Source: a virus. Taken from it: a DNA stretch of 64,000 bases. The position numbers and the translations under genes are program-made. This document shows positions 2 to 27,294 of the stretch, piece after piece. The notes beneath the pieces are model-generated. The model had not been told where the DNA came from. It saw nothing but the letters and a program-made list of their open reading frames with translations, and made no database searches. The stretch's first letter is position 1; each line of letters begins with the position of its first letter. The DNA lies in IMG/VR virus record IMGVR_UViG_3300036770_002165, positions 31,598-95,597 of that record. One strand, given 5' to 3'.

Positions 2-385
2 ATGTTCGACTCGCCCGAGTCAGCATCGTGGACCCACCCGTCCACTGGTGAGATCTTCCGTCCGCACGCTGAGTTCAGCGTGTTCATGACCACCAACGTG
101 GAGGACATGGACGAGTTGCCCACGGCACTCAAGGATCGCTTCCCTGTTGCGATCCGCATCAACCAGCCGCATCCGACTGCTCTGCTGTCGTTGTCGCCTG
201 ACCTCCGTCAGGCTGCCAGCCTCAGTGCTGACCGTCGTGGTGAGCAGCGCATCTCCATGCGTACCTGGAAGGCCTTCGACCAGATGCGCAAGTCCCTCGA
301 TGACGAGCGTGCTGCCGCTCTCATCTTCCGTGACATGGCTGTCGACGTGCTCGACGCCATTCGCATCAACGCAGTCACCGCCTAA
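2..385 (+). CDS. MoxR/CbbQ-like AAA+ ATPase, C-terminal part (5' truncated by window)
   Basis: F-MTTN sensor I, LPTALKDRF arginine finger, ISMR sensor II; followed by vWA gene. Confidence 0.8.
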   Translation: MFDSPESASWTHPSTGEIFRPHAEFSVFMTTNVEDMDELPTALKDRFPVAIRINQPHPTALLSLSPDLRQAASLSADRRGEQRISMRTWKAFDQMRKSLDDERAAALIFRDMAVDVLDAIRINAVTA

Positions 386-413
386 TCATTAGGCCAAACA
401 GAAAGGGGTCATC

Positions 414-1790
414 ATGACCAACGGCTCGGCTTATCCCGAGTTCCAGGAGCGTGATGACGTAGAGGTCGGTACGTGGGATGTTCGCCCGTCGATCACCCCA
501 CGTACCGACTTGGTTAACCGCATCATGGCAGTGCCTCTTGGTACTGACCCCAACTCACGTGCGATCCGTAACCGTGAGACGATGCGTGCCAAAGTAAGTC
601 CTCAGGAACTTTACATTCCTATTGACTTGCCTCCGTCATTTCCTCTCATGGATGCTTGCGAGACTGTGCGTCTCAACGCACTGCTCAAGCACCAGGGCGT
701 AACACACGATGCTGACAGCATCGACGCACGTGGTCTGTCTGCCATGGTCGATCGTGCCCTTGCTAGTCGTGACGTCAACACTCTTGTTGACCTAACGATT
801 AGGCACTACGGCACCAAGGCTGGTAAGTCAGTGTCTCGTGCGATCAAGGATGCGTCTGACAAGCATGGGCTGCCCCAGGCCAACGAGTACTTCAAGGGTC
901 TGCGTAGGGTTCTACGTGACAACTGTGGTAACTGGTCATACAGCTACTACCGGCGTTACTTGTCCGACAATGACCCGTCATCTTTGGCATCGCACGGGCA
1001 CGATGATGTGGTAACGATACCTCACGGTTATCGCTACACCACTGGGCTTGCTGCTGCTGTCAATCGTTTCCTCGAACGTGGTGCCGATCCGACTGCCGAG
1101 GTCAAGCCCAACGAGGTTCCTGGTGATCTCCCCGAGGCTGGTGACATGCCCACCGACTTCGCACCACTCAGGCTTCAGCATCTGCCCAAGCCTGAGCGTG
1201 TCGCTGGTCGTATGGGTCGCAAGCGTTCGGCTACCAACATCGGTGTCAATCCACGCCGTATCCACCGCTACCTGGTTGATCCTGAGAAGCGCATCTTCGA
1301 CCGCCGCATCCGTGGCATTGGTGGTGTCGTTCTCATCGACCAGTCTGGCTCGATGCATCTCAGTACCGACGAGATCTGGGACATCATCAACGCCAGCCCT
1401 GGTGCCACCATCATCGGCTACAGCCACAGCGATGGTGCCCCGCACAACTGCTGGGTGCTTGCTGAGAACGGCAAGGTAGTCAGCGAGGTGCGTGACGGCA
1501 ACGGTGGTAACGGTGTCGACGGCCCTGCCTTGCTGTACGCTCTCAGCAAGCGCAAGAAGGGTGACCCACTCGTCTGGGTGTGCGACGGCCACGTCACTGG
1601 TCGTTACGACCTACACACTCGTGAGTTGGCCAAGTGGTGTGCTCAGGTAGTCTCCAAGTACAACGTCCACATGTGTGAGGACGTGCCCGAGGCTGTCGAA
1701 GCACTCAAGCAGGTGCGTGACGGGCGCAAGTTGCCTATGCGTATGGTCGGCGCAGTCAAGTCTGCTGGCCTCAGGCTCGCACACGCCTAA
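414..1790 (+). CDS. vWA-domain protein, partner of MoxR ATPase
   Basis: VLIDQSGSM MIDAS motif, GGNGVDGPAL, VWVCDG. Confidence 0.8.
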   Translation: MTNGSAYPEFQERDDVEVGTWDVRPSITPRTDLVNRIMAVPLGTDPNSRAIRNRETMRAKVSPQELYIPIDLPPSFPLMDACETVRLNALLKHQGVTHDADSIDARGLSAMVDRALASRDVNTLVDLTIRHYGTKAGKSVSRAIKDASDKHGLPQANEYFKGLRRVLRDNCGNWSYSYYRRYLSDNDPSSLASHGHDDVVTIPHGYRYTTGLAAAVNRFLERGADPTAEVKPNEVPGDLPEAGDMPTDFAPLRLQHLPKPERVAGRMGRKRSATNIGVNPRRIHRYLVDPEKRIFDRRIRGIGGVVLIDQSGSMHLSTDEIWDIINASPGATIIGYSHSDGAPHNCWVLAENGKVVSEVRDGNGGNGVDGPALLYALSKRKKGDPLVWVCDGHVTGRYDLHTRELAKWCAQVVSKYNVHMCEDVPEAVEALKQVRDGRKLPMRMVGAVKSAGLRLAHA

Positions 1791-1810
1791 TGGTTAGGAC
1801 GGGCGTACGC

Positions 1811-1830
1811 CGCAATCGTGCGCCCGTCCA
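1811..1830 (+). promoter_or_regulatory. Conserved leader motif CGCAATCGTG-N5-GTCCA, copy 1
   Basis: Same 15 fixed bases at 5781-5800 and 13235-13254; lies within a hairpin. Confidence 0.7.
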
Positions 1831-1855
1831 GCCCTAACAACCAAGGAGGGACAGT

Positions 1856-2221
1856 ATGTCCGTCACACAAGGTATGCCCAACGGCGTGCTCGTTTACCTG
1901 GATAACGAAACAGGTAACTGGGTCATGTCGGTCAACAGATTCGTCAAGAAGAAGATTGACGCAGAGCAGCGTGCTGAACTCCTTCAGCAGGCTAAGGAGT
2001 TTCTCCGTGAAGCACAGAGCCAGGGTTTCCCAGTCGTTGATCCTGACGACGATGACGCAATCTCCGAGCGTATCCCGTCGATTGGCGAAGAAGTCGAAGG
2101 ACTTGAGTCACTCAATCGGGTCCTCGAAGGTGGTCTTGAAGAGGCGGCGTCGATCCTCCCTAACCTCTGGGATTGGCTCGTCGGTATCACCGAAACGCCG
2201 TGGCAGCCCGACGAGGACTAA
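1856..2221 (+). CDS. hypothetical acidic protein
   Basis: AAGGAGG RBS; fits gene tiling. Confidence 0.7.
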   Translation: MSVTQGMPNGVLVYLDNETGNWVMSVNRFVKKKIDAEQRAELLQQAKEFLREAQSQGFPVVDPDDDDAISERIPSIGEEVEGLESLNRVLEGGLEEAASILPNLWDWLVGITETPWQPDED

Positions 2222-2238
2222 TGATTAGGAGGGCTTAG

Positions 2239-2445
2239 ATGCCTCTTAGCCCACAGTTCGCAGACCTTAACAAAGGTCTAGAACAAACACTCACCACACA
2301 AATCAAAAACAGTGTGGACGAAATGTTGTCGATGACTGCTGGTCACCAGATAGTCTCGGCATCAGAAATGGCCGACAAGTTGCTTGACCTACGCATCCTT
2401 GTCAGCCAACTAGAACACCAAGGAGAACCACATGGTGACGATTGA
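2239..2445 (+). CDS. hypothetical protein
   Basis: AGGAGG RBS. Confidence 0.65.
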   Translation: MPLSPQFADLNKGLEQTLTTQIKNSVDEMLSMTAGHQIVSASEMADKLLDLRILVSQLEHQGEPHGDD

Positions 2446-3079
2446 CGATGTGTGGAAGCACATCAGCAACAAGATTGCGAACAAGGTAAACGACCCGTTT
2501 GCTGAGTTGTTCGCAATGGTGATCCCCGTCGATACAGAGGGCAACTTCTGTAAGGAGATCAACTCGGACTGCGAGGAGTACGAGGGCGATAGTTACACGC
2601 TCCTTCGCAAGTTGAGTAAGACCACTGAACTCCTGCCCAGCGGGACGTTTGCGTATGCCTGCCCGGCTAAGATTAGGCAGGTTGATCTGGCTGGGCGAAA
2701 CGCCGATGAGATCGACGCCGAGGAGTTGGAGGAGTTGCGAGCCAGCACGACTCCCACTCAGGTGCTGATGATCAACCTCGTCCATGCGGTCGAGGCTAAG
2801 GACGACGGCCATCCTGGTGACATGGTCATCGAGAGCGGCGTCTACTACATCGATGAGAACCGTTTCGAGGCGTTGCCCACGCTGGTAAACGGTTCCGACG
2901 ACCAGGGGCAGGACAGCAAGGGCCCGCTGACCATTGCTCTTGGTGCTCTCGCACTTGCGTGGGCACTCAGTAACGACAGGCTTGGTGACGTGGGTCGAAT
3001 GCTCAAGGAGTCATTGGACCTGGCCAAGAAGTCGTTGGAACAGGCAGAAGCAGCTTTCAACAATCTGCCGAAGCCCTAA
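2432..3079 (+). CDS. hypothetical acidic protein
   Basis: AGGAGAACCAC RBS. Confidence 0.75.
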   Translation: MVTIDDVWKHISNKIANKVNDPFAELFAMVIPVDTEGNFCKEINSDCEEYEGDSYTLLRKLSKTTELLPSGTFAYACPAKIRQVDLAGRNADEIDAEELEELRASTTPTQVLMINLVHAVEAKDDGHPGDMVIESGVYYIDENRFEALPTLVNGSDDQGQDSKGPLTIALGALALAWALSNDRLGDVGRMLKESLDLAKKSLEQAEAAFNNLPKP

Positions 3080-3095
3080 TCATTAGGAGGCAACA

Positions 3096-3506
3096 TTGCA
3101 TTCCAACATCTCGATGCTAGTTATATTCCCTAACGGCATCGTTGCAGTTCCTGAGGAGTACATGCCTGAGGACACACCCATGCACGAGGTCATCAACGCA
3201 CAAGTCGGAGGCCACTTCGACTCTGTGCGTCCGATGCGTCGTGAACAGAAGTTCATTGGCTATGTCAATGACGAGGGATTGCTTATGGGTCTTGAGCCTA
3301 ACGCTCTTGCCAGCGCAGTCTTCGGACGGTTCCTTGCGGGGCCGTGCGTCATCGTTGGTACAGCCAATGAGTTCGGGGAAGAGAACGGTGAGGATTACAA
3401 CCTCATGGATAACGATCTCGACCTCATCATGCGCATGGCACAGCCACTTCTTATGTGGCGTGACAGCGTTGACCAGCAGAAACAAATTGAACAACTGAGA
3501 GGATGA
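3096..3506 (+). CDS. DUF3846-like protein
   Basis: VGG...YVNDEGLL.GLEPN..AS...LAGPCVIVG pattern. Confidence 0.7.
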   Translation: MHSNISMLVIFPNGIVAVPEEYMPEDTPMHEVINAQVGGHFDSVRPMRREQKFIGYVNDEGLLMGLEPNALASAVFGRFLAGPCVIVGTANEFGEENGEDYNLMDNDLDLIMRMAQPLLMWRDSVDQQKQIEQLRG

Positions 3507-3507
3507 C

Positions 3508-3981
3508 ATGAACCTTTCCATGGAGATTGCCGAGTGGGTCAACAAAGACCTGCGTGAGTCAATCGACGAGACGCTGCGTTACCGAGCCACCCGCTTGTTC
3601 GCAGTTAACAAGACAGCCAACGGATACGAGCGTCGCCTCGTGGACTCCGACCCTGATCCGTACGATCTGATCAGGCGGCTGCCCAAGCCTGACAAGGTGG
3701 ATGCCTACTGCCTCGTCATGACTGGGTGGATGACTCCCATCGCTGATGGTGACGACGACGAGCAGATCAACAGCCCGTACAACGACGAGCGTGTGCGTGT
3801 GCGTCTCTGCGCCGCTGTGTCCGACGCTGGTGTGTCGGTGCGTGTACAGCGTTGGGTCAACGGTTACCCGGAGGGTGACTCGTTCGAAGATGGGGGCGAG
3901 GGTTCTTTCCCCGATGCTCTCCGTCTGTGGTGGGACGCCACGCAAGGGCGTAACAACCTGTTCGAACTGATGGGTGACTGA
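3508..3981 (+). CDS. hypothetical protein
   Basis: GAGG RBS; TGATG overlap with next gene. Confidence 0.7.
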   Translation: MNLSMEIAEWVNKDLRESIDETLRYRATRLFAVNKTANGYERRLVDSDPDPYDLIRRLPKPDKVDAYCLVMTGWMTPIADGDDDEQINSPYNDERVRVRLCAAVSDAGVSVRVQRWVNGYPEGDSFEDGGEGSFPDALRLWWDATQGRNNLFELMGD

Positions 3982-4442
3982 TGTTCCGTAAGACCATTAT
4001 CGCCCTCTCTGTTGCTGGTGGGCTAATGGTTAGTGCGTGTGGGGGTGAGACTGTGTACGTCACGGTCTCACCCTCCACTACGGAGCCAGCCTCAACTACA
4101 ACGGTGCGTAAGACAACCACGACGTTGGCTACCACGCCACCGTTGGCCACCCGCCCACCATCAAACGTAAGCACGTATGACCCCGATGCTTACGACACTT
4201 TCCTTTGGTCAAGTGTTCGTGACTTCTGGTGGTTGTTCACTGAAGAACAGCTGCTCCAGATGGGCCTGCTTGTCTGCGAGGAGTTCGATCGTGGGTCAAC
4301 TCTCGACCAGGTCACCATGGCTTTGGTGGAGGTTCTTAACGACAGCAATACGGCGTACCTAGCCGAGGGTATGGCTGCGGTTACCGCTGGCGCTCTGACC
4401 TACTTGTGCCCCGAGCACAGTTGGTGGCTTAGCACCATCTAA
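3981..4442 (+). CDS. lipoprotein with Thr-rich linker and DUF732-like domain
   Basis: Signal peptide ending VSAC lipobox; G..VC..F..G and YLCPEH Cys pair. Confidence 0.7.
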   Translation: MFRKTIIALSVAGGLMVSACGGETVYVTVSPSTTEPASTTTVRKTTTTLATTPPLATRPPSNVSTYDPDAYDTFLWSSVRDFWWLFTEEQLLQMGLLVCEEFDRGSTLDQVTMALVEVLNDSNTAYLAEGMAAVTAGALTYLCPEHSWWLSTI

Positions 4443-4459
4443 TCACTAGGAAGGATCAC

Positions 4460-4696
4460 ATGATCATCCTGTACAACAAACACACTGGTGAGCACTTCAA
4501 CGCTGACGACGTGGTGCTTATCAACACCAGAGACATGGACAGCCACGTGCTGTCCGAGTTAGAGGACGGCAACCACGACGTGCTCGCAGACTTCGCTGAG
4601 ACTTCTGTGGCCACGCCGTTCTGGGAGGCGTTCGACCCTTTCGCTGAGCGTAAGGACAATCCCAACTATGGGTACGGCCCAACAATCCTGGTATAG
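4460..4696 (+). CDS. hypothetical protein
   Basis: AGGAAGGA RBS. Confidence 0.65.
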   Translation: MIILYNKHTGEHFNADDVVLINTRDMDSHVLSELEDGNHDVLADFAETSVATPFWEAFDPFAERKDNPNYGYGPTILV

Positions 4697-4708
4697 GAGG
4701 AGATAACC

Positions 4709-5233
4709 ATGGGTATGGATGTGTATGGCAAGAAGCCGCGCACTGAGCCCGGCGGATACTTCCGCAACAATGTCTGGTGGTGGCGTCCGCTGTGGCAGTA
4801 CTGCGTAGAGCAGCACCCCGACATCATTGACCCCAAGACTGCTGAGGCAGGCCACTTCAATAGCGGCGCTGGCCTCAACGCAGGTAAGTCCAGGGCCTTG
4901 GGTAAGGCGCTGTTGGAGGATATCTCCAATGGGGTCACCGACAAGTGGCGTGAGGAGTACTACGCAGCGATCGCCACGCTCCCGATGAGAGAGTGCACAC
5001 TCTGTGGTACAACGGGTATCCGCACCGACGACGTAGGTAAGGATCACGGCATGGACACACGAGAGCTAGACCCTGAGACAGCGACCCTCTTGGGCCGCAC
5101 ACATGGATGGTGTAATGGTTGCAATGGTGAAGGACACATGGAGCCATGGGAGGCCGGTTACCCATTCGAAGTAAGCAACGTCCGTGAGTTCGCAGAGTTC
5201 CTGTTGAACTGCGGAGGATTCGAGATTCACTGA
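4709..5233 (+). CDS. conserved phage protein with CxxCxxxG zinc-finger
   Basis: YFRNNVWWWRPLW; CTLCGTTG and CNGCNGEG. Confidence 0.75.
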   Translation: MGMDVYGKKPRTEPGGYFRNNVWWWRPLWQYCVEQHPDIIDPKTAEAGHFNSGAGLNAGKSRALGKALLEDISNGVTDKWREEYYAAIATLPMRECTLCGTTGIRTDDVGKDHGMDTRELDPETATLLGRTHGWCNGCNGEGHMEPWEAGYPFEVSNVREFAEFLLNCGGFEIH

Positions 5234-5526
5234 TGATCCCTGAGAACATTGAAGATCTGAGCGAGATCGAGTTGGCTGCTTTGTTGCGACCACTCAATCC
5301 GCACCAGAAAGACATACTCAAGCGACGCCTCGGCCTAGCTGGGTATGAGAAACAAACCTTGCAAGAGGTTGCAGACAACATCGGCAAGGATGTAGATTAC
5401 GTCCGCTTGATGGAAGTCAAGGCAATGGTTGACCTCGGTTGGGTCAACCTCGTCAAGAAAGTTGAGAACCACAATGAAGCCATACTTGAACACCCAAGTA
5501 ACCGTTCAGTTCCAGCGACTGAGTGA
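5233..5526 (+). CDS. stand-alone sigma-70 region 4 HTH protein
   Basis: LNPHQKDILKRRLGL...TLQEVADNIG...VRLMEVKAM resembles sigma70 r4. Confidence 0.7.
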   Translation: MIPENIEDLSEIELAALLRPLNPHQKDILKRRLGLAGYEKQTLQEVADNIGKDVDYVRLMEVKAMVDLGWVNLVKKVENHNEAILEHPSNRSVPATE

Positions 5527-5761
5527 AACACCCATTACTCCTGAGTGTCGCACCATTAACGAAGGTGAGGACAACGAATTCCACATCTTCCAGTTTAATG
5601 TTGAAGAAACTCTTCCTCACAAGGTTCAGTTCTTCTTCAATACCACTCAGGAGTTCATCAACTTCCTCAACGATCTTCGCAGTACATGCGAGAACAAGAT
5701 CTGGGATCTGACGGCAATGCCGAGCGAGTACGAGTACGACTACGCTCGTGAGCCGTTCTGA
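5429..5761 (+). CDS. hypothetical protein (true start probably ~5474-5523)
   Basis: Fills gap; acidic C-terminus. Confidence 0.5.
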   Translation: MTSVGSTSSRKLRTTMKPYLNTQVTVQFQRLSETPITPECRTINEGEDNEFHIFQFNVEETLPHKVQFFFNTTQEFINFLNDLRSTCENKIWDLTAMPSEYEYDYAREPF

Positions 5762-5780
5762 CCCCCAGACAACCCGGCGT

Positions 5781-5800
5781 CGCAATCGTGCCGCCGTCCA
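5781..5800 (+). promoter_or_regulatory. Conserved leader motif, copy 2
   Basis: CGCAATCGTG CCGCC GTCCA. Confidence 0.7.
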
Positions 5801-5826
5801 ATCCACACACAAGTAGGAGAACCCCT

Positions 5827-6624
5827 ATGCGTACCTCTGTTCAGAGGGTTACGCCAGACATGGCACGGACCATGCTGGCAACAAACACCAAGAACCGCAA
5901 GCTGCGGCGTGCGCGTATCAACCAGTACGCCGAGCAGATGAAGCGTGGCCAGTGGCAGGCTACCGGGGAGGCGATCAAGTTCGCCAAGGACGGTACTCTG
6001 CTCGATGGTCAGCACCGTCTCCATGCGGTTATCGAAGCCAACGTTGAACTCGACATGCTCGTGGTGCAGGACCTCGACTTGTCGACGTTCAAGGTCATCG
6101 ACTCGGGCCTTACCCGCACTCCGGGTGATGCCCTCCAGTTGATGGGGATCAGCAACAGCAACCATAAGGCTGCTGCTATCCGCATGTACATCGCTGCTGA
6201 TGCTCAGATTCCGATTGACAAGAGCACTGCACTGACCAACCTCATCACCCGCACCGATATCACCAATTTCGTTGCTGTTAACGATGATCTGGTCAACGAT
6301 GCTGTTAACGCAGCCCGTACCGTGTACAACAACTGTCGGGGTAACCGCCCCGCTTGGGCTGCTCTGTACATGATGATCACCAAGAAGTACGGACAGGCTG
6401 AGGCCGAGATGTTCTTCCAGTCAGTTGCGGAGGGTACGAATATGTCCCCTGGTGACCCGCGTCTTGCCCTGCGCAACTGGGCGGTTCGCAACACCAGCAA
6501 CCCGTACCGTGGCGAGCATCTGTATGCGTACTGCCGTGCCTACAACGCTCACCGAGCGGGTGACAACATGCACTTGCTGCGTCTTCCTATCCCGGCGCAT
6601 CGCAAGCCTCCCGTCGTCGACTGA
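5827..6624 (+). CDS. ParB/Srx-like (DGQHR) domain protein
   Basis: NRKL...YAEQMKRGQW...LLDGQHRL.AV; RBS TAGGAG before ATG 5827. Confidence 0.75.
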   Translation: MRTSVQRVTPDMARTMLATNTKNRKLRRARINQYAEQMKRGQWQATGEAIKFAKDGTLLDGQHRLHAVIEANVELDMLVVQDLDLSTFKVIDSGLTRTPGDALQLMGISNSNHKAAAIRMYIAADAQIPIDKSTALTNLITRTDITNFVAVNDDLVNDAVNAARTVYNNCRGNRPAWAALYMMITKKYGQAEAEMFFQSVAEGTNMSPGDPRLALRNWAVRNTSNPYRGEHLYAYCRAYNAHRAGDNMHLLRLPIPAHRKPPVVD

Positions 6625-6932
6625 TGGACGGGTTCCGTATCACCGAGTCGACAGCTGACTTCTACTGGCAGATCATCCATGATCATCCGGAGGAGTTCAA
6701 ACTGGGGCTCGTTGAATCACAGTTGTCGACCGGGGTCACCTACAATGGTGACCCCGAGTCGGCACAATCAATCGCATATGACTTTGGCCGTACTTTCGGT
6801 GAAGCGATGCACGCCCTGTGGGAGAACCTAGATATGGATCACCCACTGTGGAACGACGACGCTTACTGCGATCATGGCCCGAGTGTCTACGAGAGCTATT
6901 GCCCCAAATGCACAGGACAAGAGGATGCCTGA
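6624..6932 (+). CDS. hypothetical protein
   Basis: TGATG coupling; C-terminal CxH..CxxC. Confidence 0.65.
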   Translation: MDGFRITESTADFYWQIIHDHPEEFKLGLVESQLSTGVTYNGDPESAQSIAYDFGRTFGEAMHALWENLDMDHPLWNDDAYCDHGPSVYESYCPKCTGQEDA

Positions 6933-7161
6933 ATTTCACGTTTCATCTAAGCGAATTGTCTACACAAAATTCGCTGCACTAGCACTGACAATCTTGCTCG
7001 CCGGGCGTATCATGCTCAGCGACCCCAACGTGGTGTACCGGTACATCGGTACTCTTGCGTTCATCGGATTCAACATCCGAGCCATGATGTTGGCCGTGTA
7101 CATCCAGTACCGTGGTAAGCACGGTTGGGGTAGTACGGTTGATATCCCAGATAATCATTAG
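6925..7161 (+). CDS. small membrane protein
   Basis: Two hydrophobic segments; GAGG RBS. Confidence 0.6.
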   Translation: MPEFHVSSKRIVYTKFAALALTILLAGRIMLSDPNVVYRYIGTLAFIGFNIRAMMLAVYIQYRGKHGWGSTVDIPDNH

Positions 7162-7172
7162 GAGAACCACCA

Positions 7173-7445: not shown

Positions 7446-8885
7446 ATGCTTACGTTGCCAACTCTGGCTGTACCACTTCTAGCGCACCAGCAGGAGGCGG
7501 TGCAGTTCGTACTTGACCATCAGCAGGCTTACCTAGCATTAGATATGGGGTTAGGTAAGACAGCCTGTGCCATAGGAGTTGTGGAGTCTGCTCGTGTTAT
7601 CGGGCAGACTCCTGCTCTTCTGGTAGTGCCCCCGTCGTTGCGTACGACGTGGATCAAGGAGTTGCAGAAGTTCGCTCCGCATCTCAAAGTGTTTGTAATC
7701 AAGGGTATGGAGACATACCCATTACCACCTGCTGATGTGTACATCATCGGTGACTCCGTGATCCGTAGTTGGGTAGACAAGGACGACCCCCACTCGCTAC
7801 GGCACCAGATCAAAGTGCTAGTCGTTGACGAGGCCCACCGTGTTAAGAACATGGGCTCTAGTCGTACTCGTGCTGTCATCGAGCTAGCCAAGACGATCCC
7901 TGGTTTCAAGATCCTCATGTCCGGTACCCCTACTCCTAACGGTAGGAACATGGAGATGGGTTCGCAGATCGAGATCCTCGGGGCGTCTGCCTGGGCCGCT
8001 GTCGGTGGTAAGGGTAAGTTCTGGAACTACTACTGCCCCGTGGAGCGTGACGACAAGGGTCGCCTTAACCGTTACGGTAAGCGTGCCAACATCGATTCAC
8101 TTGGTCTGCACGAGGCAATGACAGGCTCGTTTATGATGCGCCGACGACGTGAGGAAGTGCTAAACCTGCCACACAAGGGTAGATCAGCAATTCATATCGA
8201 AGGACGTGGTAAGGCTGTAAGTGATTACATCCTTGCCGAAGAAGATCTTGTTGCGTATCTAGCTGGCGAGGGGTTGCCATTCCGTGCCGCTATGCGCAAC
8301 GAGGCACTCGTCAAGCTAACCACCATGCGGCGGTTGGCTGGCGAGTGCAAAGTTCGTGGTGTTATCGACCACGTGAAAGAGCTGCTCGTTGAGACGGCGC
8401 ACGACGATGTACCCATGGGTATCTTTATCGTTGCTGAGCACCACTCGGTGATGAGCCCCATCGCTGAGGGCCTTGACAAGTACGGCGTGGTCATGTACAA
8501 CGGAACAATGGGGGATAAGGAGAAAGCATCAGCCGTGGAGGACTTCACGTCTGGTGCCGCTCGGGTCATGGTTGGCCAGATCAAGTCGGCGGGTGTCGGC
8601 CTGACACTCCATGGTGATGGTCGTAACCACCGTGTCATTATCGCCCAACTACCTTGGTCACCTGCAGATATCCAGCAGGCCGAGGACAGGCTGCATCGCA
8701 TCGGGCAAACATCCGATGTTGAAGTAGAGATCTGCCTTTCCAGCATCGACAACTCATGGACAGTAGATGAACGTCTGTGGGGATTGCTAGAGGGCAAAGC
8801 ATTCTCAGCTAGTGAACTCATCGATGGTAAGGGTGAGTTCTTACTAGAGGAGATACAAGACAGCATCATTGATTCTTACAGATAA
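7446..8885 (+). CDS. SNF2-family helicase/translocase 1
   Basis: DMGLGKT, DEAH, SGTP, QAEDRLHRIGQ. Confidence 0.92.
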   Translation: MLTLPTLAVPLLAHQQEAVQFVLDHQQAYLALDMGLGKTACAIGVVESARVIGQTPALLVVPPSLRTTWIKELQKFAPHLKVFVIKGMETYPLPPADVYIIGDSVIRSWVDKDDPHSLRHQIKVLVVDEAHRVKNMGSSRTRAVIELAKTIPGFKILMSGTPTPNGRNMEMGSQIEILGASAWAAVGGKGKFWNYYCPVERDDKGRLNRYGKRANIDSLGLHEAMTGSFMMRRRREEVLNLPHKGRSAIHIEGRGKAVSDYILAEEDLVAYLAGEGLPFRAAMRNEALVKLTTMRRLAGECKVRGVIDHVKELLVETAHDDVPMGIFIVAEHHSVMSPIAEGLDKYGVVMYNGTMGDKEKASAVEDFTSGAARVMVGQIKSAGVGLTLHGDGRNHRVIIAQLPWSPADIQQAEDRLHRIGQTSDVEVEICLSSIDNSWTVDERLWGLLEGKAFSASELIDGKGEFLLEEIQDSIIDSYR

Positions 8886-9163: not shown

Positions 9164-10369
9164 ATGGTTGCAGCCAAAGCCCTCCGTGAGGGCATGGAAG
9201 TAGTCATCAACTCCGGGCCCTACACCGGACTGATAGCACGGGTCATCGATCCCACCGTCTTCCCCGACGGGCACCCCGACCAGCGCAAGATCCGTGTTGA
9301 TATCGCTGGTGTCGGTGAGACGCTGATCATTCCCAAGCAGCTCAGCATCACCGGCATGGCCCCCGTGGTGCACAGCGCACCAACTGTGGTTGCCAGTACT
9401 GCACCAGTGCACGTGCCAACCGTGGCCGTGTCCAAAACGCCTATCACATCTCTTGACGATCCTGCCCTTGACCGTTGGCGTCCACAGCGTGCCAGCGTTG
9501 TCAAGGAGTACGTATCTCGAGAGTTGCCTGGCGGTATCAAAGATGTCGATGCGCTAGTCAAGTACTGGCGTGACGACCGCATCGATGGGTACGCCCCTAA
9601 CATCGGCCTGGTTGGTGACACCCAGTCCGGTAAAACAATGCTGGTTGAGGTTCTCGCCCACCTTGTGGCCAAGGAGATGGGGTTGTCTAAGCCCTTGCCG
9701 ATCTTCTTGCTCGCCGGTAACAGCGCCATTACCGACCACGATATGTTCGGCCAATACCGTCCTGACGACACGGGTCAACTCGTGTGGATGGAGGGTGTGG
9801 TTGCCCTAGCCGCACGCATCGGCGGAATCCTGTATCTCGACGAGGTCAACGCAATGCCTGGTGCAGTCACCGCGGCTTTGCACCCGTTAGCTGACGATAG
9901 ACACCAGTTCGTTAACATCCGTAAGCCTGTCGATGACGGGCACGGTGGCATGATGCCTGATGTTGTCAAGGCATCTACTGACCTGTGGATCATGTCGACG
10001 TACAACCCTGGCTATGCCGGTATGAGCAAGGCTAACGAAGCATTCCTCGCACGGTTCCGCTGGTTGCAGTGGAACTACGACGAGGAAGTTGAGAAGAAGT
10101 TGATCAAGTCGCCTGGTGTCAGGTTGCTTGGCCAGTCTCTCCGCAACGCCCGTGAGGGTCGTGCTATCTCAACACCGGTGGGCACATCCGCACTGCAGCG
10201 TCTTGAGCGTGACATCGCCATGTTCGGCGTTGAGTACGCACTCTGGTCGTTCTGCGGGCAGTTCACCAGTAAGGCCGAGCGCACTGTTGTCGAAACCCTA
10301 ATCGAAGACCGAAGCATCCGGCTCATGATTACCACAGAAGTCGAGGGGACAGTTAAGGAGCAAGCATGA
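9164..10369 (+). CDS. MoxR/CbbQ/NorQ-like AAA+ ATPase with N-terminal KOW-like region
   Basis: GDTQSGKT Walker A, LYLDEVN Walker B, TYNPGYAG, AFLARF. Confidence 0.9.
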   Translation: MVAAKALREGMEVVINSGPYTGLIARVIDPTVFPDGHPDQRKIRVDIAGVGETLIIPKQLSITGMAPVVHSAPTVVASTAPVHVPTVAVSKTPITSLDDPALDRWRPQRASVVKEYVSRELPGGIKDVDALVKYWRDDRIDGYAPNIGLVGDTQSGKTMLVEVLAHLVAKEMGLSKPLPIFLLAGNSAITDHDMFGQYRPDDTGQLVWMEGVVALAARIGGILYLDEVNAMPGAVTAALHPLADDRHQFVNIRKPVDDGHGGMMPDVVKASTDLWIMSTYNPGYAGMSKANEAFLARFRWLQWNYDEEVEKKLIKSPGVRLLGQSLRNAREGRAISTPVGTSALQRLERDIAMFGVEYALWSFCGQFTSKAERTVVETLIEDRSIRLMITTEVEGTVKEQA

Positions 10370-18868: not shown

Positions 18869-19185
18869 CAGTGTGTGTGGGCGTGTGTCGGGCCGTTATG
18901 GAGATAGGCGTGTACAGCGTTACGTACCCATTCCTGAAGGAACGAGGAGTTGATCATCGGTAGGATCTCGTGTGTTAGATCTACAACTTCATTGCCGACA
19001 GTGAGTGTAACTTGTGTTAGTTCTCTGTACCGACGAAACTCAGCTGCCTGAGCAGCGATGAACTCTGAGGCATCACGGAGGATGTCCGCGATGTCCTGTA
19101 CGGTGTAACTCGTCATATCCGAGATCAGGTCATCAGCCGTCTCGGCAAGAGACTTAGCGTATTGGTATGCGTCAATGGGTTCCAT
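18868..19185 (-). CDS. hypothetical protein
   Basis: AAGGAG RBS. Confidence 0.7.
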   Translation of the reverse strand: MEPIDAYQYAKSLAETADDLISDMTSYTVQDIADILRDASEFIAAQAAEFRRYRELTQVTLTVGNEVVDLTHEILPMINSSFLQEWVRNAVHAYLHNGPTHAHTH

Positions 19186-19220
19186 GTATGCTCCTTGTTA
19201 GGCCCGTGATACTACAGGTT

Positions 19221-20657
19221 CTACTGCTGCTCGTCAATGTTTATTACGTTGGCTATGAAGTTATCTGTACGAGAGGCATCTAACCCGCCTCCCGGTAACT
19301 GCCTGGATATCTCCCCGGCCTTTTGGCCAAAGAGCCTAGAAAGTACACCGGCACTACCGCGGGCCTCGACCTCAATACGCATCATGTCGCGGGTGTCAGA
19401 GATATTCTTAAACTTGTCAACCAAGGCAAAGAGGCGATCCATCTCTGATGAAAGGGCTGGGTCAAGACCTTGTCCCTCAAGTTCCTCAGCAAACCGAGCA
19501 AACAAAACTCGGCTTGCCTGCATCTCAATTAACGCCTGCAGCATGGCGGTCAGCTGGTCCTTGGTGCGTATCTCCACAGGCAACTTGTAACCACAATCAG
19601 AATGTTCGCGGAATGCAGGACAACGAGATGCTAGATAGCAACTATCACACTGGCGTAGAGGACCCGATTGATACCTGATTACGGGGGTCTCTTGGGGGTC
19701 CACTTCAATGTATTCACCCTGGTCATAGTCGGTTTGAGTACCAACCGAGACTATGTTCTCTATACCGATTACCGGTAGTAATACGCGTTCCCCCTCGTGC
19801 CGCCTTTCTAGGGGCGCGGTAGTAATAGGTGATGCTTTGGGAACCAGTTTAGGTGGGGTATGGGTTTCAGGGGTCATAGTAACTATTTCCCCTGTTTCGT
19901 TGTTTACGAACTCTTCTTCGTCGTCATCAACCTGGGGGTCATAGGCCCTAATTGTGGACTCTTCCCACGCCAACCACGAGCGGATGGCAAGTGTACCCAT
20001 TGCACTAACATCGTCTTCCATAACAGCGTCGTAGTCGACTCCGAGACGGATGATGTCTGGGCGGTGCTTCTTGCGAGACGACTCTTTCTGCTGGGCCGGG
20101 TACCGCCGTAGCCCGTGCCCATCCCATACCTGGGTTTCCCCGTAGCGAATAACGGAAGTCCAGGAGCCGACGACTACCGCTGACCAAGGTAGGGATTCGA
20201 TAACGTCTGGCTTACTTGTTAAACCAATTAAGGAGGCTCCCCACCGCTGCGAGAGGGAGCGGATGCGCGGGGCGGTCTTAGCGTTGATTGCTTTGTCGGA
20301 TATGGCGGCTCGCCCGTATCGTTGGCATAACCACGCTAGACGCTCTAGGTCGTCCCCGTCAGACCACAGGGGTATGTATTTATCGCCCATCCAGTCACCG
20401 TCATAGCCAGGACGACCTATGACGAAAGAGAGATCATCGATGTGTTCCCGAACGAAGTCCGTATACCGGTTCTCATCCTCATCACCTTCTGAGGTGTACA
20501 ACAGAACCTCAGCACCATTGAACACGGTAGGGACGTGGAACTCCTTCACCTTGGGGATAGGCAAGTGGGTAAGGTTGACCGCCATGCTTTGTACGCCGTT
20601 AGCGATAAGCATGTTTCTGTGGGCACCCTTTTCAGCTCCGCCCAGGAATACCTTCAT
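19221..20657 (-). CDS. hypothetical protein; possible degenerate TGT/DpdA-like N-domain plus 4-Cys domain
   Basis: LPWSAVVVGSWTSVIRYG; CDSCYLASRCPAF...C. Confidence 0.6.
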   Translation of the reverse strand: MKVFLGGAEKGAHRNMLIANGVQSMAVNLTHLPIPKVKEFHVPTVFNGAEVLLYTSEGDEDENRYTDFVREHIDDLSFVIGRPGYDGDWMGDKYIPLWSDGDDLERLAWLCQRYGRAAISDKAINAKTAPRIRSLSQRWGASLIGLTSKPDVIESLPWSAVVVGSWTSVIRYGETQVWDGHGLRRYPAQQKESSRKKHRPDIIRLGVDYDAVMEDDVSAMGTLAIRSWLAWEESTIRAYDPQVDDDEEEFVNNETGEIVTMTPETHTPPKLVPKASPITTAPLERRHEGERVLLPVIGIENIVSVGTQTDYDQGEYIEVDPQETPVIRYQSGPLRQCDSCYLASRCPAFREHSDCGYKLPVEIRTKDQLTAMLQALIEMQASRVLFARFAEELEGQGLDPALSSEMDRLFALVDKFKNISDTRDMMRIEVEARGSAGVLSRLFGQKAGEISRQLPGGGLDASRTDNFIANVINIDEQQ

Positions 20658-21127
20658 ACATCCCTCCACGAGCGCTCAGCAGCCTTCAGGGCCTGTGTGT
20701 CAATTTCATCTACAAGTGAGCCCCACTCCCTGATCTTCCTACCCGTATCCCATTCGGGGCGAACGATATATGGTACGGCTGCTACCAATGTGGGGATGCC
20801 CAGCTTGATGGTCTCGGCGCATGTCCTGGCGTCGTTGTCTATGTACCAGTTAATCTTGCCCGCGGCTGACCCAATGCGGTGTACTTTTTCCGCTTTGAGA
20901 ACTGGGTCTTCCTCGTCTAAAAAGTCAAGCATTGATGCCTTGAACTGTTCCCGTTTAAGCCAGTCCATAAATTGCGAGCGGTCATATACCTCGTCGCATA
21001 CAACAATTATACGGCCCATGTACTTATCAAACATGGCACCCCACAGGGCTCTGCCGTCTGAGTCGGGTTGCCGTAGCGACAGGTTCTCAGCTGGCCTTGC
21101 CAGGACAGCAAAGTTAAAGACGATCAC
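20654..21127 (-). CDS. hypothetical protein, possibly HAD-like without DxD
   Basis: MIVFNFAVL start, WYIDND. Confidence 0.55.
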   Translation of the reverse strand: MIVFNFAVLARPAENLSLRQPDSDGRALWGAMFDKYMGRIIVVCDEVYDRSQFMDWLKREQFKASMLDFLDEEDPVLKAEKVHRIGSAAGKINWYIDNDARTCAETIKLGIPTLVAAVPYIVRPEWDTGRKIREWGSLVDEIDTQALKAAERSWRDV

Positions 21128-21582
21128 CCGTCGTACATCCCCTTAGCCTTACGTACCTTATGAATAACGTAAGCGGATGCTGGGCAGTAATGGCATAGGT
21201 ATTGGAGGTTCTCCTTAGGCACACCGATAGTGCGGCCAATCACCTTAGACCCATCCTCATAATCTGGACACATTCCAGATGGCCGGTTATGCTTGTTGAA
21301 GCACTTAAGGGCTTCAACCTTGAGGTCATCGCGTACTTCTCGTACTTCCCACTCGTTCTTGAGGAGCTCTTTTTGGATCTGAGTTTCATTGCCCAGCTTT
21401 TCCCAGGTCTTCTCGTCTACCCGGAAGATAAGGGATAGGTGGGAGTCAGGGTTCTGATCCGATGCCTGGCCGAGGTGGCGTTTGATTAGTTCCTGGAGCT
21501 CCATGTCGTAGTCAGGAGGGCCGTCATAGTCGTGCATCTTATACATGGTGCCGCAAGAACGGCAGGCCAGAAGCCTGGGCAT
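21124..21582 (-). CDS. Cys-rich hypothetical protein
   Basis: CRSC; CF..HNRP...CPDY; LCHYCP. Confidence 0.7.
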   Translation of the reverse strand: MPRLLACRSCGTMYKMHDYDGPPDYDMELQELIKRHLGQASDQNPDSHLSLIFRVDEKTWEKLGNETQIQKELLKNEWEVREVRDDLKVEALKCFNKHNRPSGMCPDYEDGSKVIGRTIGVPKENLQYLCHYCPASAYVIHKVRKAKGMYDG

Positions 21583-21606
21583 ATTGTGCTCCTAATTAGC
21601 GATTAA

Positions 21607-21831
21607 TCAGTCTTCAGCGTAGCCTGATTCGTACTCGTGGTCAAGTACCTTAGGTGTAACACCCTTCATCATATCAGTTACGTTGTATTGTGCCTGTAGT
21701 AATCCGGACCGCACGTTGGCGTGTGACTCGTCGACTTCACCACCGCGGTCTGGAGTGAGGTTCTTCAGACGCCCATCATTTGTGCCGAGGTGGAGGTCGT
21801 TGTTCATCGAGCGGGAGTCGTTGATAGCCAT
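21607..21831 (-). CDS. hypothetical protein
   Basis: AAGGA RBS. Confidence 0.6.
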   Translation of the reverse strand: MAINDSRSMNNDLHLGTNDGRLKNLTPDRGGEVDESHANVRSGLLQAQYNVTDMMKGVTPKVLDHEYESGYAED

Positions 21832-21847
21832 AGCGGGTCCTTATCTG

Positions 21848-22798
21848 TCAGAGCTTCTTGCCGAAACCGCGGTTACCTTTACCGCGGCCACGGTTGCGTG
21901 GTTGGTTGGGGCGCTGTGAAGCGCCTGCTGCTCCGGTTCGTCGCTGTGTGGTGGTCTGCTGTCCTGCTGCCATGTTTGATGCTCCCTGTTGGTGTTGTGA
22001 GAAGGTTGGGGAATCCCAAATGTCACCGGAACCCCAAATGTCATCAGATCCTACACTATAGGTGGACGCGCCGCTAGTGGATTGCGTTACTGGTGTTCCC
22101 CAAATGTCATCCGTGGGACCACCAGTTGTAGCGCTCTGTGTCATCGGGAATGACCCGAGAAGGTTAACTTCTCTATTGGCCGTGGGCCTACGCAGTGGCG
22201 ATTTAGCCCCTGGTTGCATAGGGCCTTGCTGCATACCTGTCTGCAGGGATTCTGCAGTTCCCATAGTGCGCCCAGCAAACTCCCCCAGACGAGCAGACTT
22301 TGCAGCTGCGGCTTGCTTGTCTGCACGTGCCTGCTGACGAGAACGGATGTTCTGTATACGCTCTGCTCGCTGTTGCTTTCCACGGTAATTTTGGTAAATG
22401 GGTGTGCCACCAAAACGAAAGTCAAGATCTGGGTCAGCCCCAGGCATACGGTCCATGGCAAAGTTGGCCGCTGTCTTGCCCAACTGTGCAGTCATACCGG
22501 CGGTGTTGGCGAGTGTTCGGTAATTGTACCCACCTGGGTTAGATGGGGTTCCACCACCACCGGGGCCGCTGATTGATACTGATCCTGAGCCAGTGTTATA
22601 CCCCCAGTTACCTCCTGGCGCGGAGGAGGGGCTACCGAGTGTCGTGCGGTATCCGGGCTGATCAAGGTAGCTCCAGATGTCGTCCTCACGGCCACCGTAA
22701 CGCATGGCCATAATACGGGAGAAAGTATCGACGTTGCTGGCGTTACCCGCCATCGGGGTAGACGACCATCCTGGATTTTGTGCCTGCATTACCATCAT
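21848..22798 (-). CDS. G/S/Q/T-rich low-complexity protein
   Basis: 316-aa ORF with repeated DDIW motif. Confidence 0.65.
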   Translation of the reverse strand: MMVMQAQNPGWSSTPMAGNASNVDTFSRIMAMRYGGREDDIWSYLDQPGYRTTLGSPSSAPGGNWGYNTGSGSVSISGPGGGGTPSNPGGYNYRTLANTAGMTAQLGKTAANFAMDRMPGADPDLDFRFGGTPIYQNYRGKQQRAERIQNIRSRQQARADKQAAAAKSARLGEFAGRTMGTAESLQTGMQQGPMQPGAKSPLRRPTANREVNLLGSFPMTQSATTGGPTDDIWGTPVTQSTSGASTYSVGSDDIWGSGDIWDSPTFSQHQQGASNMAAGQQTTTQRRTGAAGASQRPNQPRNRGRGKGNRGFGKKL

Positions 22799-23094
22799 GA
22801 ACTCCAGAGACTGCTCATTGAATACCGACCAGAACCGGAGAACGAACCGTCCTCAAATGAAGTACGCATTACTGGCATACCGGATACCCAGGACCTATAT
22901 GAGGGAGCGCCGTAGCGGCTGGTGTTGAGCACACTAATGATGGTGTGCTCTTGGCGAGCAAAACCAAGACGATCTGGGAAAAGAACCTGGGGTACGACAG
23001 GGCGTGTTTGCCTAATGGTCTCTGGATCGCTGATCGCGGATTCCAGGGCCAGGTCAGTAAGCATCTCCTGCCGTGTAGTCCAAGGCTTAGGCAC
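22795..23094 (-). CDS. hypothetical protein
   Basis: Fits gene tiling. Confidence 0.6.
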   Translation of the reverse strand: MPKPWTTRQEMLTDLALESAISDPETIRQTRPVVPQVLFPDRLGFARQEHTIISVLNTSRYGAPSYRSWVSGMPVMRTSFEDGSFSGSGRYSMSSLWSS

Positions 23095-23096
23095 TA

Positions 23097-23261
23097 TTAG
23101 TACCCTTGTGAGTTAGCGTTGTCCCCACGACCAGCGCCCATGCCACCACGAATAGTCCCCTTGATCTTTCGCGGCTTAGGTGCAGGTGCAGTAGTTGAAT
23201 CAAACCGCTCGGTTTGATCTCCTTCTGGCATTCCCTGTGGATTATAAGATCCTGATCCCAT
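23097..23261 (-). CDS. small hypothetical protein (54 aa, not in ORF track)
   Basis: MGSGSYNPQG...NSQGY; TGATG coupling. Confidence 0.55.
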   Translation of the reverse strand: MGSGSYNPQGMPEGDQTERFDSTTAPAPKPRKIKGTIRGGMGAGRGDNANSQGY

Positions 23262-23425
23262 CACTTACCTCGCTTTTTAATAGCAGCGTTGGCTGCCCTA
23301 ATTGCTTTAGCATCGTCTCCTGTAGATTTTAGCACCTTATTTGCTACAGCAGACCACTGCTTCTTCTCAGCATTGGTGTTTACTTTTTTATTCTTTTTAG
23401 GTGCGTCAGATGGTTTCCAGGGCAT
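23261..23425 (-). CDS. small basic ChaB-like protein (54 aa, not in ORF track)
   Basis: MPWKPSDAP...KQWSAVANKVL..GDDAKAIRAANA. Confidence 0.6.
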   Translation of the reverse strand: MPWKPSDAPKKNKKVNTNAEKKQWSAVANKVLKSTGDDAKAIRAANAAIKKRGK

Positions 23426-23426
23426 G

Positions 23427-23936
23427 TCATCTCCACGGTGGTGCTAGGCGCTTTAGCTTGCTGCGGCGCTCCATGTTGACGACTTCCTGCTGGGGCCGAG
23501 ACAACCCACGTGGAATACCGCGGGGGCCGGTCTTACCGTCGTTGGTAAGACGCACAGGCTCCGCCCCAGGTGGGGCGAACTTCTTGCCCTGAGCCTGCAA
23601 CTGCAGGCCGGTCAGGGGATTGAACTCCTGTGGCCAGATGTAATCACCCTGGTTGATGCGCTCACCTTTGTGCACGCCACGTGAATACGGTCTGGTGTTG
23701 GAACGCATTACCGCATTTGTCAACTTATCTTGACGGCGATTAGAGGACATTGTCCCCAAATACCCGTCTGGGTACTGCACATCAGGAGATGCGCCCCAAG
23801 CGGCAAGCTGCTGGTCCTTACCGTTACGGAATACTGGGGCGGGTCCAAGCAGGGGCTGGCTGGTATTGGCATATGGGTCGTAACCCCCACCCCAATCAGT
23901 AAAAGTCTGTTGGTTAGCCACGGCTATTCGCACCAC
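23427..23936 (-). CDS. hypothetical protein
   Basis: YPDGYLGT...RRQDKL...RGVHKGERI. Confidence 0.7.
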   Translation of the reverse strand: MVRIAVANQQTFTDWGGGYDPYANTSQPLLGPAPVFRNGKDQQLAAWGASPDVQYPDGYLGTMSSNRRQDKLTNAVMRSNTRPYSRGVHKGERINQGDYIWPQEFNPLTGLQLQAQGKKFAPPGAEPVRLTNDGKTGPRGIPRGLSRPQQEVVNMERRSKLKRLAPPWR

Positions 23937-24187
23937 CCATGCTGTTCAAGATGGAAGCCTGCCCACCTCCTGTGGGGGGAACTGGGCGCGGCTTCTTCTT
24001 GATCTTGCGCTTCTTAGAATCAGTAGTCTTCTTTGACGCCAAATCGACCATGCTCCTTGCGTCGTTGTTTGCTTTGATGGACTACTTCTTCTTCGTATAA
24101 CTCATCAAACTGATCTTCATAGTCTGGTGAGTTAGCTAGTTTGTACCAGTCTTTTTGTGAATGTTTTGTCATATAGATAATAAATAT

Positions 24188-26392: not shown

Positions 26393-26450
26393 TAATGTAA
26401 CCTCACCGACTAAATGGGATATGAATAGATATTACCACTTTGTGGAGGTG

Positions 26451-26735
26451 TTAACGGATTACAGGCTTAAAGGTTATGGCAGAGATAACCTCACCATTCT
26501 CGCCCTTTATGTCATCAAATCCGATAACAAACGAGAGGTCAATCCCTCGCGGTGCGGCAAACCCGCGAGCAATAGCGCAGGCTTTGGCGGCCTGGTTAAC
26601 TGCGCTGGCACCGATGGCCCGCATCTTGGGGGCCTGCCCTGCTACAACCGCTCGGGCTACGATCGAGCCCACACTCTGGGGGTTGCTCGTACCGGAAACC
26701 TTTATTACGTCATCTACCGATAGCTCTTGAGACAT
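26451..26735 (-). CDS. spoVS: SpoVS-family protein
   Basis: KVS..SNP.SV...AIGASAVNQA.KA.AIARGF.AP.GIDL. Confidence 0.9.
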   Translation of the reverse strand: MSQELSVDDVIKVSGTSNPQSVGSIVARAVVAGQAPKMRAIGASAVNQAAKACAIARGFAAPRGIDLSFVIGFDDIKGENGEVISAITFKPVIR

Positions 26736-26777
26736 TGTGTACTCCGTTATACTCTTATGGACCTACGTCCATAAATA

Positions 26778-27137: not shown

Positions 27138-27294
27138 CGGCTGCTGTCCTACGGCGTTTATATGCTTCGTTAATTATTTCTGGCTGGCGTCCGCATAGTC
27201 CACACACGCCCATACGCAGATAGGGTATGTGGGGCCAGTCCCTGCAACATCTTGCTGTTTTGAGATCTTCGTATACTATGTAGTCGTTATCCAC
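27121..27294 (-). CDS. small Cys-rich protein
   Basis: CC...CGLC; start uncertain. Confidence 0.45.
   Translation of the reverse strand: MDNDYIVYEDLKTARCCRDWPHIPYLRMGVCGLCGRQPEIINEAYKRRRTAADGQPS

Follow-up and report, generated by a model that had tools for sequence, protein, structure and literature searches.

A local array of short palindromes in a small-gene block of an uncultured actinobacterial phage and its putative dimeric reader

The repressor of phage phiC31 (the products of its c gene) binds conserved inverted repeats (CIRs), KorB of plasmid RK2, a member of the ParB family, binds 13-bp OB operators of the form TTTAGCSGCTAAA, and SPbeta-like phages carry palindromes at their gene junctions. 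Cluster O mycobacteriophages contain 17-bp dyad repeats, 5'-TGTTCGGNNNCCGAACA (PMC4351075). The stoperators of Cluster A phages (L5 gp71) are proposed to block both initiation and elongation in many genes (PMC9283540, PMC6550527), and the PeSLs of T4-type phages are composites of an early promoter and a terminator-like stem-loop (PMC2839356, PMC4122927). Here, we analyze a palindromic word that recurs in a window of 64,000 nucleotides, corresponding to positions 31598-95597 of the 95,597-bp virus record IMGVR_UViG_3300036770_002165, which has direct terminal repeats. The genome encodes a tail sheath, a family-A polymerase, two SNF2 helicases and two WhiB genes, the latter of which identify it as a phage of actinobacteria. 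All copies of the word are crowded into one block of small genes. We give an even chance to the explanation that they are sites on double-stranded DNA through which a dimeric protein would regulate the whole block, the binding being putative, with exchange of gene cassettes as a by-product.

Judged by analogy with Cluster O dyad repeats, stoperators and PeSLs, the array is of a kind already known. Cluster O phages and this phage are both actinophages, whose short inverted repeats have a variable 3-bp centre, occur in tens of copies between and inside open reading frames (ORFs) and show no orientation bias relative to transcription; binder and function are not known in either. However, the Cluster O copies are distributed genome-wide, while all copies here lie in 12 of 95.6 kb. 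The arms measure 7 bp in Cluster O and 4-6 bp here, and the centre is constrained here (Y-S-R, with C or G in the middle) and only partly free. Furthermore, an orthologously conserved in-gene copy and documented breakpoints on the word set the present array apart. With the stoperators it has in common more than 20 sites of 13 bp, located at promoter regions or, here, in the leader at the block start, and at short intergenic gene ends. Stoperators, in contrast, are asymmetric, monomer-bound and strictly oriented with transcription, and they are spread over the genomes of temperate phages with a known repressor, whereas the sites described here are palindromic, orientation-neutral and local, in a phage that is probably lytic.

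As in the case of PeSLs, short conserved motifs flank small variable genes in a hyperplastic block, insertions, deletions and replacements between close relatives end on the motif (here as seen in a sister clade), and some copies are fused to a GC stem-loop. Unlike PeSLs, no sigma-70-type promoter is detectable, only some copies adjoin a GC hairpin, and the 13-bp palindrome is also found in genes. CIRs and KorB operators resemble the array in being multiple, highly conserved palindromic operators dispersed through a gene block or replicon, and the KorB site is likewise of 6-1-6 layout, centred on C or G. Their binders are known, whereas no ParB_N domain was found here, and no search by name was made for homologues of either binder. 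Dispersed palindromic words recur in small-gene blocks of phages, and binder and function are mostly not known. In the present case, a close outgroup with the same core genes and without the array makes the gain datable and narrows the search for the binder. Together with the in-gene conservation, this clean outgroup makes the array a good case for finding it. In addition, replacements bounded exactly by the word tie a probable regulatory site to mosaic evolution.

Extent, symmetry and placement of the word

The exact word CTAANNNTTAG occurs six times in the window (starts 382, 792, 1787, 2218, 3076 and 4023), as compared to 0.51 expected copies, and none of 100 dinucleotide-preserving shuffles reached six. 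Ten further exact copies are located upstream of the window at genome 27627-31201. The whole genome contains 16, all of them within 8 kb (genome 27627-35630). A whole-genome scan with a position weight matrix revealed 19 matches of at least 12 bits, all at genome 26.5-39 kb and none elsewhere, versus a mean of 1.1 in composition-preserving shuffles. The frequency is thus anything but uniform along the genome, and a copy at 10576 that had been noted as weak indeed scores below 10 bits. One-mismatch copies are present at window 4438 and 7150 and additional deviant copies at genome 26633 and ~29906. Including near copies, the array comprises about 25 sites over 12 kb (genome 26.6-38.8 kb), beginning at a divergent gap with DnaA boxes. 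The array is genome-interior, and the window edge cuts through it; its confinement to a left, early end, as reported in the preliminary description of the window, is an artefact of the window.

The same description had introduced the word as CTAAnnnTTAG. This palindrome is present, but the word is really a longer one of 13-15 bp, cCTAAT-C/G-ATTAGg, with the consensus (c/t)CTAAY-S-RTTAG(g/a). Its four outer core bases in each half are invariant by search definition. Position 5 of the half-site is T in 84% and otherwise C, each half being independently CTAAT or CTAAC. The earlier suggestion of sites for a dimeric protein is supported: the half-sites are symmetric, all 37 sites (16 of 16 in this phage and 21 of 21 in its relative G014) have C or G as the centre base in either orientation, and reverse-complement variants are interchangeable, with TCG and CGA as well as TGG and CCA both occurring. 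Centre C and G are found at 11:10 in G014, at 9:10 in the related contig L112 and at ~24:18 in the pooled sites. The flanking base covaries with lineage, this phage having C and the G014 group T. Predicted RNA folding of the sites is weak and uneven, ranging from 0 to -9.3 kcal/mol with two sites unfolded, and deviant copies disrupt pairs without compensation. A symmetric dimer on double-stranded DNA would tolerate this variation; an RNA-level reader would not.

Read on either strand, the word has a TAA in one frame and a TAG in a second, and the CTA frame alone is open. Because of these stop codons in two of three frames, placement is limited to gene junctions or to the open frame. Ten copies in this phage supply the stop of the upstream gene (nine TAA and one TAG), and six of these lie 9-11 nt before the next start, where TTAGGAGG fuses the 3' arm to the ribosome-binding site (RBS). 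Four copies are located in genes, always in the CTA frame (genome 30120, 30365, 32389 and 35620). The remaining copies map to the leader or to spacers; several are found at the block head, and at least six lie in the leader DNA at the block start. Expressed as shares, about one quarter of the copies lie in genes and about one third in leader DNA distant from stop codon and RBS. The ratio of TAA to TAG in the sites, pooled with G014, is 14:3, as compared to a background of 19:7 in long ORFs; since this preference matches general stop usage, no translation-level explanation is needed. In-gene copies tend toward hydrophobic stretches, namely those of two small membrane proteins and the signal peptides of two lipoproteins; the copy at window 4022 has an analogous one in the lipoprotein signal peptide of G014. 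The resulting Leu-Ile/Met-Ile/Val-Ser/Arg is tolerated in such stretches. All eight copies previously listed in the window were recovered, including the six that hold a gene stop, the four that continue into an RBS and the two that lie in frame within genes (Table 1).

Table 1. Palindrome copies and the adjoining hairpin in the window (window coordinates; RBS, ribosome-binding site).
Element	Position	Strand	Gene context	Sequence continuing from the element, or peptide	Score
Palindrome CCTAATCATTAGG	381..393		TAA of 5' half (383-385) is stop of AAA_5 ATPase gene	next gene starts at 414	22.9 bits
In-gene palindrome CCTAACGATTAGG	791..803		within vWA-partner gene 414-1790	in frame, Leu-Thr-Ile-Arg	
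Palindrome CCTAATGGTTAGG	1786..1798		TAA of 5' half is stop of 458-aa gene	adjoins GC hairpin 1797-1829	
GC-rich hairpin, loop CCGCAATCG	1797..1829	+	separate repeated element	fused to palindrome	
Palindrome ACTAATGATTAGG	2217..2229		TAA of 5' half is stop of gene 1856-2221	3' arm runs into RBS AGGAGGG of gene at 2239	
Palindrome CCTAATCATTAGG	3075..3087		TAA of 5' half is stop of gene 2432-3079	runs into RBS AGGAGG of gene at 3096	
In-gene palindrome GCTAATGGTTAGT	4022..4034		lipoprotein gene 3981-4442, signal peptide	in frame, CTA ATG GTT AGT, Leu-Met-Val-Ser	
One-mismatch palindrome TCTAATCACTAGG	4438..4450		TAA of 5' half is stop of gene 3981-4442	runs into RBS of gene at 4460	14.8 bits
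One-mismatch palindrome GATAATCATTAGG	7150..7162		TAG of 3' half is stop of gene 6874-7161	runs into RBS GGAGAACCACC of gene at 7173	13.1 bits

Relatives, conservation and breakpoints

A search with the polymerase assigned the phage to a large family of uncultured phages. The closest group, composed of G006, G007, G014 and L112, carries the array at identities of 78% in PolA, 72% in SNF2 and 84% in the second helicase; G006 and G007, with 100% identity in PolA, are one phage. In G014, 21 exact copies were counted; they are confined to 18920-30625, the stretch between the DnaA boxes and the AAA_5 gene past SNF2. Throughout this sister clade, 19-21 copies are located in the same block, with most of the intervening genes different, and three of its four contigs end within the array. 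G001 (PolA 74%) possesses these core genes too, the ATPase and its vWA partner among them, and no copy of the word, and this also applies to G002-G005 and L115/L116. No replacement word was detected in G001 and G002, neither as an enriched 8- or 9-mer nor as a palindrome. Since the array is present in the closest group and missing from the more distant relatives, its gain can be dated: it arose in the ancestor that this phage and the G014 group have in common, or shortly before it.

Block genes common to both array-bearing lineages are few, consisting of the ATPase, the vWA partner, three to four small genes and SNF2, and the word persists. Several small block genes are common to this phage and the array-less G001 and not to the array-bearing sister clade. 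Searches of the block against 50,697 phage records by megablast and tblastn revealed no relative, a search of IMG/VR with the vWA protein gave no match, an IMG/VR search for the 15-mer of this phage's own type gave no closer relative, and a search of species genomes with the WhiB protein gave no match. In the literature, the word was encountered only in incidental primers.

Selection acts on the nucleotide word itself, as shown by the copy in the vWA partner, which keeps its codon position over orthologues that are 44% identical while the residues change. At the same alignment column, this phage has CTA ACG ATT AGG (LTIR) and G014 has CTA ATC GTT AGT (LIVS), which holds CTAATCGTTAG, the reverse complement of this phage's site; the array-less G001 reads ATG GTC TCT GCG (MVSA) and has no site. 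Selection at the DNA level had been proposed earlier from codon choice. That argument is weak because CTA, at 17.9% of Leu codons, is not rare here (AGG accounts for 10% of Arg), and the in-gene evidence stands instead on the orthologue comparison. Junction copies are also kept at the stops of the ATPase, the vWA partner and the next gene. G007 has in-gene copies in SNF2, AAA_5 and a membrane protein which are missing in this phage, where the residues differ; copies are thus gained and lost, and the sites in SNF2 and AAA_5 of G007 were gained with amino-acid changes.

Conservation of the core is in good accordance with this. Between L112 and G014, the eight core positions reveal 0 changes in 144, as compared to 2.4% differences in the flanks (P = 0.03), and between G007 and G014 they reveal 0 changes in 56, as compared to 7.6% (P = 0.01). 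The three centre positions changed in 2 of 21 cases, one of them being a C/G swap. A loss of in-gene copies in relatives would have spoken against the word, and core and in-gene conservation came out in its favour.

L112 and G014 are ~96% identical up to and including one palindrome. The 331 and 464 nt that follow, respectively, are unrelated, and identity returns precisely with the next palindrome. Palindromes likewise delimit a second replacement. Taking L112 versus G014 and G007 versus G014 together, 5-6 of 12 breakpoints are located at most 14 nt from a site; the comparison concerns the sister clade, not this phage itself. It must be considered, however, that swaps of gene size end at junctions in any case, and that the shared word itself is the last stretch of identity. 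The earlier suggestion of cassette-shuffling sites is supported as far as replaced segments bounded exactly by palindromes are concerned, and such shuffling may be a by-product.

A scan of 2.9 million IMG/VR contigs for GTCTAATCATTAGAC elucidated three records of a second lineage, the complete 63-kb G011 and the fragments G012 and G013, with 14, 8 and 6 clustered copies of gTCTAAC-N-RTTAGAc, respectively. Apart from remote matches of PolA, helicase and AAA/vWA, their proteins have no counterpart in this phage. The isolates nearest to G011 are Rhizobium and Pseudomonas phages, and no WhiB gene was found in G011 or in the two fragments. Some sites in this lineage lie directly beside the -35 of a perfect TTGACA-N16/17-TATAAT promoter; others are found ~70-80 nt downstream of the -35 hexamer or ahead of an RBS. 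The copies surround a pair of genes for an AAA ATPase and a DUF2201 vWA-metallopeptidase, near Nmad5 and DUF3150 genes (L153-L156, L157, L158). The match may reflect a common regulator or convergence; because the lineage was found by searching so many contigs for the word, coincidence is plausible.

Candidate explanations of the array

According to the explanation that we favour, a homodimeric sequence-specific DNA-binding protein would occupy the palindromes as double-stranded sites. One cluster of sites lies in the non-coding leader beside the divergent gap (genome 26.5-28.9 kb), and further sites follow about every 0.5 kb through the 12-kb block, at nearly each junction and within genes that are too long to skip. 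With sites arranged in this way, a single protein could govern the entire block, probably by a stoperator-like shut-off via operator occupancy and elongation roadblocks. The tight block confines the word to overlaps of stop codon and RBS or to the open frame Leu-(Ile/Met/Thr)-(Ile/Val)-(Arg/Ser), which is tolerated in signal peptides and membrane helices. In favour of this explanation are the locality and symmetry of the array, the conservation of the word, the covariation of the flanking base, the weak RNA folding and the position of sites at promoters in the second lineage. At junctions, a recurring word of 11-15 bp would double as microhomology for recombination and would in this way explain the gene replacements bounded by it. 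The early-gene operator array that had been suggested before remains the best, albeit putative, reading, with three reservations: no binder was found among the candidates checked, no promoter is visible in this phage, and 'early' is a presumed timing. If the binder were found, phages of freshwater actinobacteria would be seen to switch a whole block of genes in a compact manner, by one protein.

Several observations weigh against a regulator of this type. No binding protein was singled out among the candidates checked, and neither an array gene nor any helix-turn-helix (HTH) protein checked shows the phyletic pattern of presence with and absence without the array, in a screen that may miss remote homologues of a cognate repressor. 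Sigma-70-like promoters numbered 0 at genome 26.3-32 kb, with 2.0 expected, in a scan that actinobacterial promoters may escape; with no such promoter detectable, an operator-promoter geometry cannot be demonstrated in this phage. Moreover, the phage looks lytic, and a stoperator-type immunity repressor is therefore not expected. The centre base of its own sites is skewed (12 C to 4 G), and breakpoints on sites fit a role in recombination equally well. None of the candidate binders stood out: the product of the first block gene (190 aa) has no Pfam, PHROG or PDB match, conservation with the array is seen neither for the sigma region-4-like protein (5233) nor for the HTH protein (12704), MerR-like and HTH_17-like proteins (genome 66.2 and 48.8 kb, respectively) are present in array-less relatives too, and small zinc-ribbon proteins common to G014 and G011 were not found in this phage.

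The main rival explanation, which we consider rather unlikely, regards the palindromes primarily as recombination joints for cassettes of small genes exchanged between co-infecting relatives, by homologous or microhomology recombination or by a dedicated enzyme. Such joints would be comparable to PeSLs of T4-type phages or to the junction palindromes of SPbeta-like phages. The replacements between L112 and G014, both of which start and end at palindromes, and the proximity of breakpoints to sites are in agreement with it, as are contigs of the sister clade that end inside the array and a block whose gene content is almost completely different between lineages while the word persists. Weak PHROG matches, RecE-like and Mu Gam-like, were also obtained for one protein of the phage. 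However, the in-gene copies, one of them conserved between the diverged vWA orthologues and others located in SNF2 and AAA_5, are unusable as cassette joints, and the non-coding leader contains clustered sites as well. Any conserved junction word would yield such breakpoints as a by-product, the two word-bearing lineages have no cassette in common, and no recombinase is linked to the array. A stronger form, in which the word would be the site of a dedicated exchange system by which unrelated phages trade small-gene cassettes, is very unlikely; if true, it would account for the same word in the unrelated 63-kb lineage, for the exact ends of replacements and for the anticodon arm of a tRNA-like element described below. 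No integrase was found among the proteins adjacent to the array. An array of integron attC cassettes was rejected, as the sites measure 13-15 bp versus at least 57 bp in attC, occur in genes and have no integrase next to them.

The remaining explanations, at the RNA level, of ParB type or through a host factor, are less likely than both the regulator and the joints. An action in mRNA is improbable: the word would form a hairpin at the stop codon, its 3' arm lying over the next Shine-Dalgarno sequence, and serve for coupling or repression or as a signal for processing or stabilization. The stop-bearing copies, six of them with an arm fused to the RBS, would suit such a role, as would the location of all block genes on one strand and the tRNA-like element with a copy as its anticodon arm. 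The weak and inconsistent folding and the uncompensated deviant copies argue against it, and so do loops UCA and UGA that are equally frequent in G014, the exchange of variants for their reverse complements, the copies in genes and in leader DNA away from stop or RBS, and a stop preference that equals background usage. Less probable than any of these is a centromere- or KorB-like system, in which palindromes next to a DnaA-box origin would be the loading sites of a ParB-family protein that then spreads or slides along the block. The array does begin at five DnaA boxes, its sites are palindromes of 13-15 bp and, like chromosomal parS sites, are also found in genes, and the protein at window 5827-6621 has a DGQHR motif. 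This protein had been put forward as the ParB of a parS-like cluster, which the data do not support. It has no Pfam match and no PDB relative, it belongs to a PHROG family of unknown function, Pfam ParB_N gave no match in this genome and eight related records (9 genomes), and no homologue exists in the five array-bearing records G014, G006, G007, G011 (complete) and G012.

A host protein that reads the sites, for example a Fur-family regulator which the phage senses or titrates, is very unlikely as well. The inner 9 bp, TAATSATTA, equal the core of the Fur-family 7-1-7 box GATAATGATAATCATTATC, a dimer-bound 15-bp inverted repeat TGATAAT-N-ATTATCA (PMC11353095), and the copy at 7150 reads GATAATCATTA. 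A host reader would also be in line with the lack of a phage-encoded binder among the candidates checked and with the same word in an unrelated phage lineage. However, the discriminating positions on the outside are CC/GG instead of GA/TC, the phages have no Fur gene, and the flanking base covaries with phage lineage. A shared factor is unlikely, given that the nearest isolates of the second lineage infect Proteobacteria while this phage has two WhiB genes. Exact GCCTAATCATTAGGC was found in at least 120 stretches in 185,579 species genomes; among the matches listed (80), the taxa are unrelated and reveal no actinobacterial enrichment. Three known types of signal were also rejected: a host sigma-70 promoter (the word is unlike -10 and -35 elements, and the block has no promoter-like sites), an N4-type hairpin promoter (the start would fall in or after the RBS, and the centre is strand-neutral), and an intrinsic terminator (no T tract follows the word).

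Setting of the block and accompanying elements

Genes left of 26.5 kb are oriented leftward, and a block of small co-oriented genes runs rightward from 27038. Between them, a 540-bp divergent gap contains five co-oriented GTTATCCACAGG repeats with the consensus DnaA box TTATCCACA at genome 26860-26946 (position 6860 of L005, the record piece upstream of the window, is genome 26860). DnaA boxes are found at the equivalent place in G014, G006 and the array-less G001. The block genes are mostly without family match, apart from the AAA_5 ATPase and its vWA-type partner, a DUF3846 protein, the sigma region-4-like protein and the protein at window 5827-6621. The G+C content is 51.9% in this phage and 43-47% in all related records.

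A form of the word with a 2-bp spacer, CTAACATTAG, is present in three identical copies of the same orientation (genome 26684, 26970 and 28136; 0.07 expected). The copies at 26970 and 28136 precede the start codons of 27038 and 28203 by 68 and 67 nt, respectively, which suggests a promoter-linked subclass. In the divergent gap, AGAATAGGGCTA is repeated twice (genome 26510-26581). A 28-nt stretch holding it is 96% identical in G006, and AATAGGGCTA occurs at least four times in the equivalent region of G001; AGAATAGGGCTA and AATAGGGCTA may be a family-wide promoter or regulatory word. The junction TAATCATTAGGAGAACCACC(A)ATG, composed of palindrome, RBS and spacer, is common to this phage (window 7150-7175) and the sister clade (L086 of G007, 1337-1362; L114, 7011-7036), where it precedes different genes.

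Exact GCCTAATCATTAGGC is located ~47 nt from many contig ends of one metagenome-assembled Janthinobacterium genome (L194, L199, L201, L209, L217, L230 and others). There it lies within the 140-nt identical terminal repeat of an insertion-sequence-like element, ~25 nt before a leftward ATG, and this occurrence is probably coincidental.

Two structured elements accompany the palindromes. A tRNA-like element at genome 28780-28849, called tRNA-SeC(tca) by ARAGORN, has a palindrome copy as its anticodon arm. Its anticodon loop AAUCAUU is without U33, the Rfam tRNA model does not match it, and its T arm nearly equals that of tRNA-Arg(CCT) in the arrays of G014 and L112. The second element, a GC hairpin with the conserved loop CCGCAAYCG, often adjoins palindromes or is flanked by them. 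Besides the copy in Table 1, it is found at window ~5770-5795 and in L005 at ~7775-7805 and 9868-9900. At the orthologous vWA stop, the hairpin is kept in G014 and in the array-less G001, and it is therefore older than the palindrome array.

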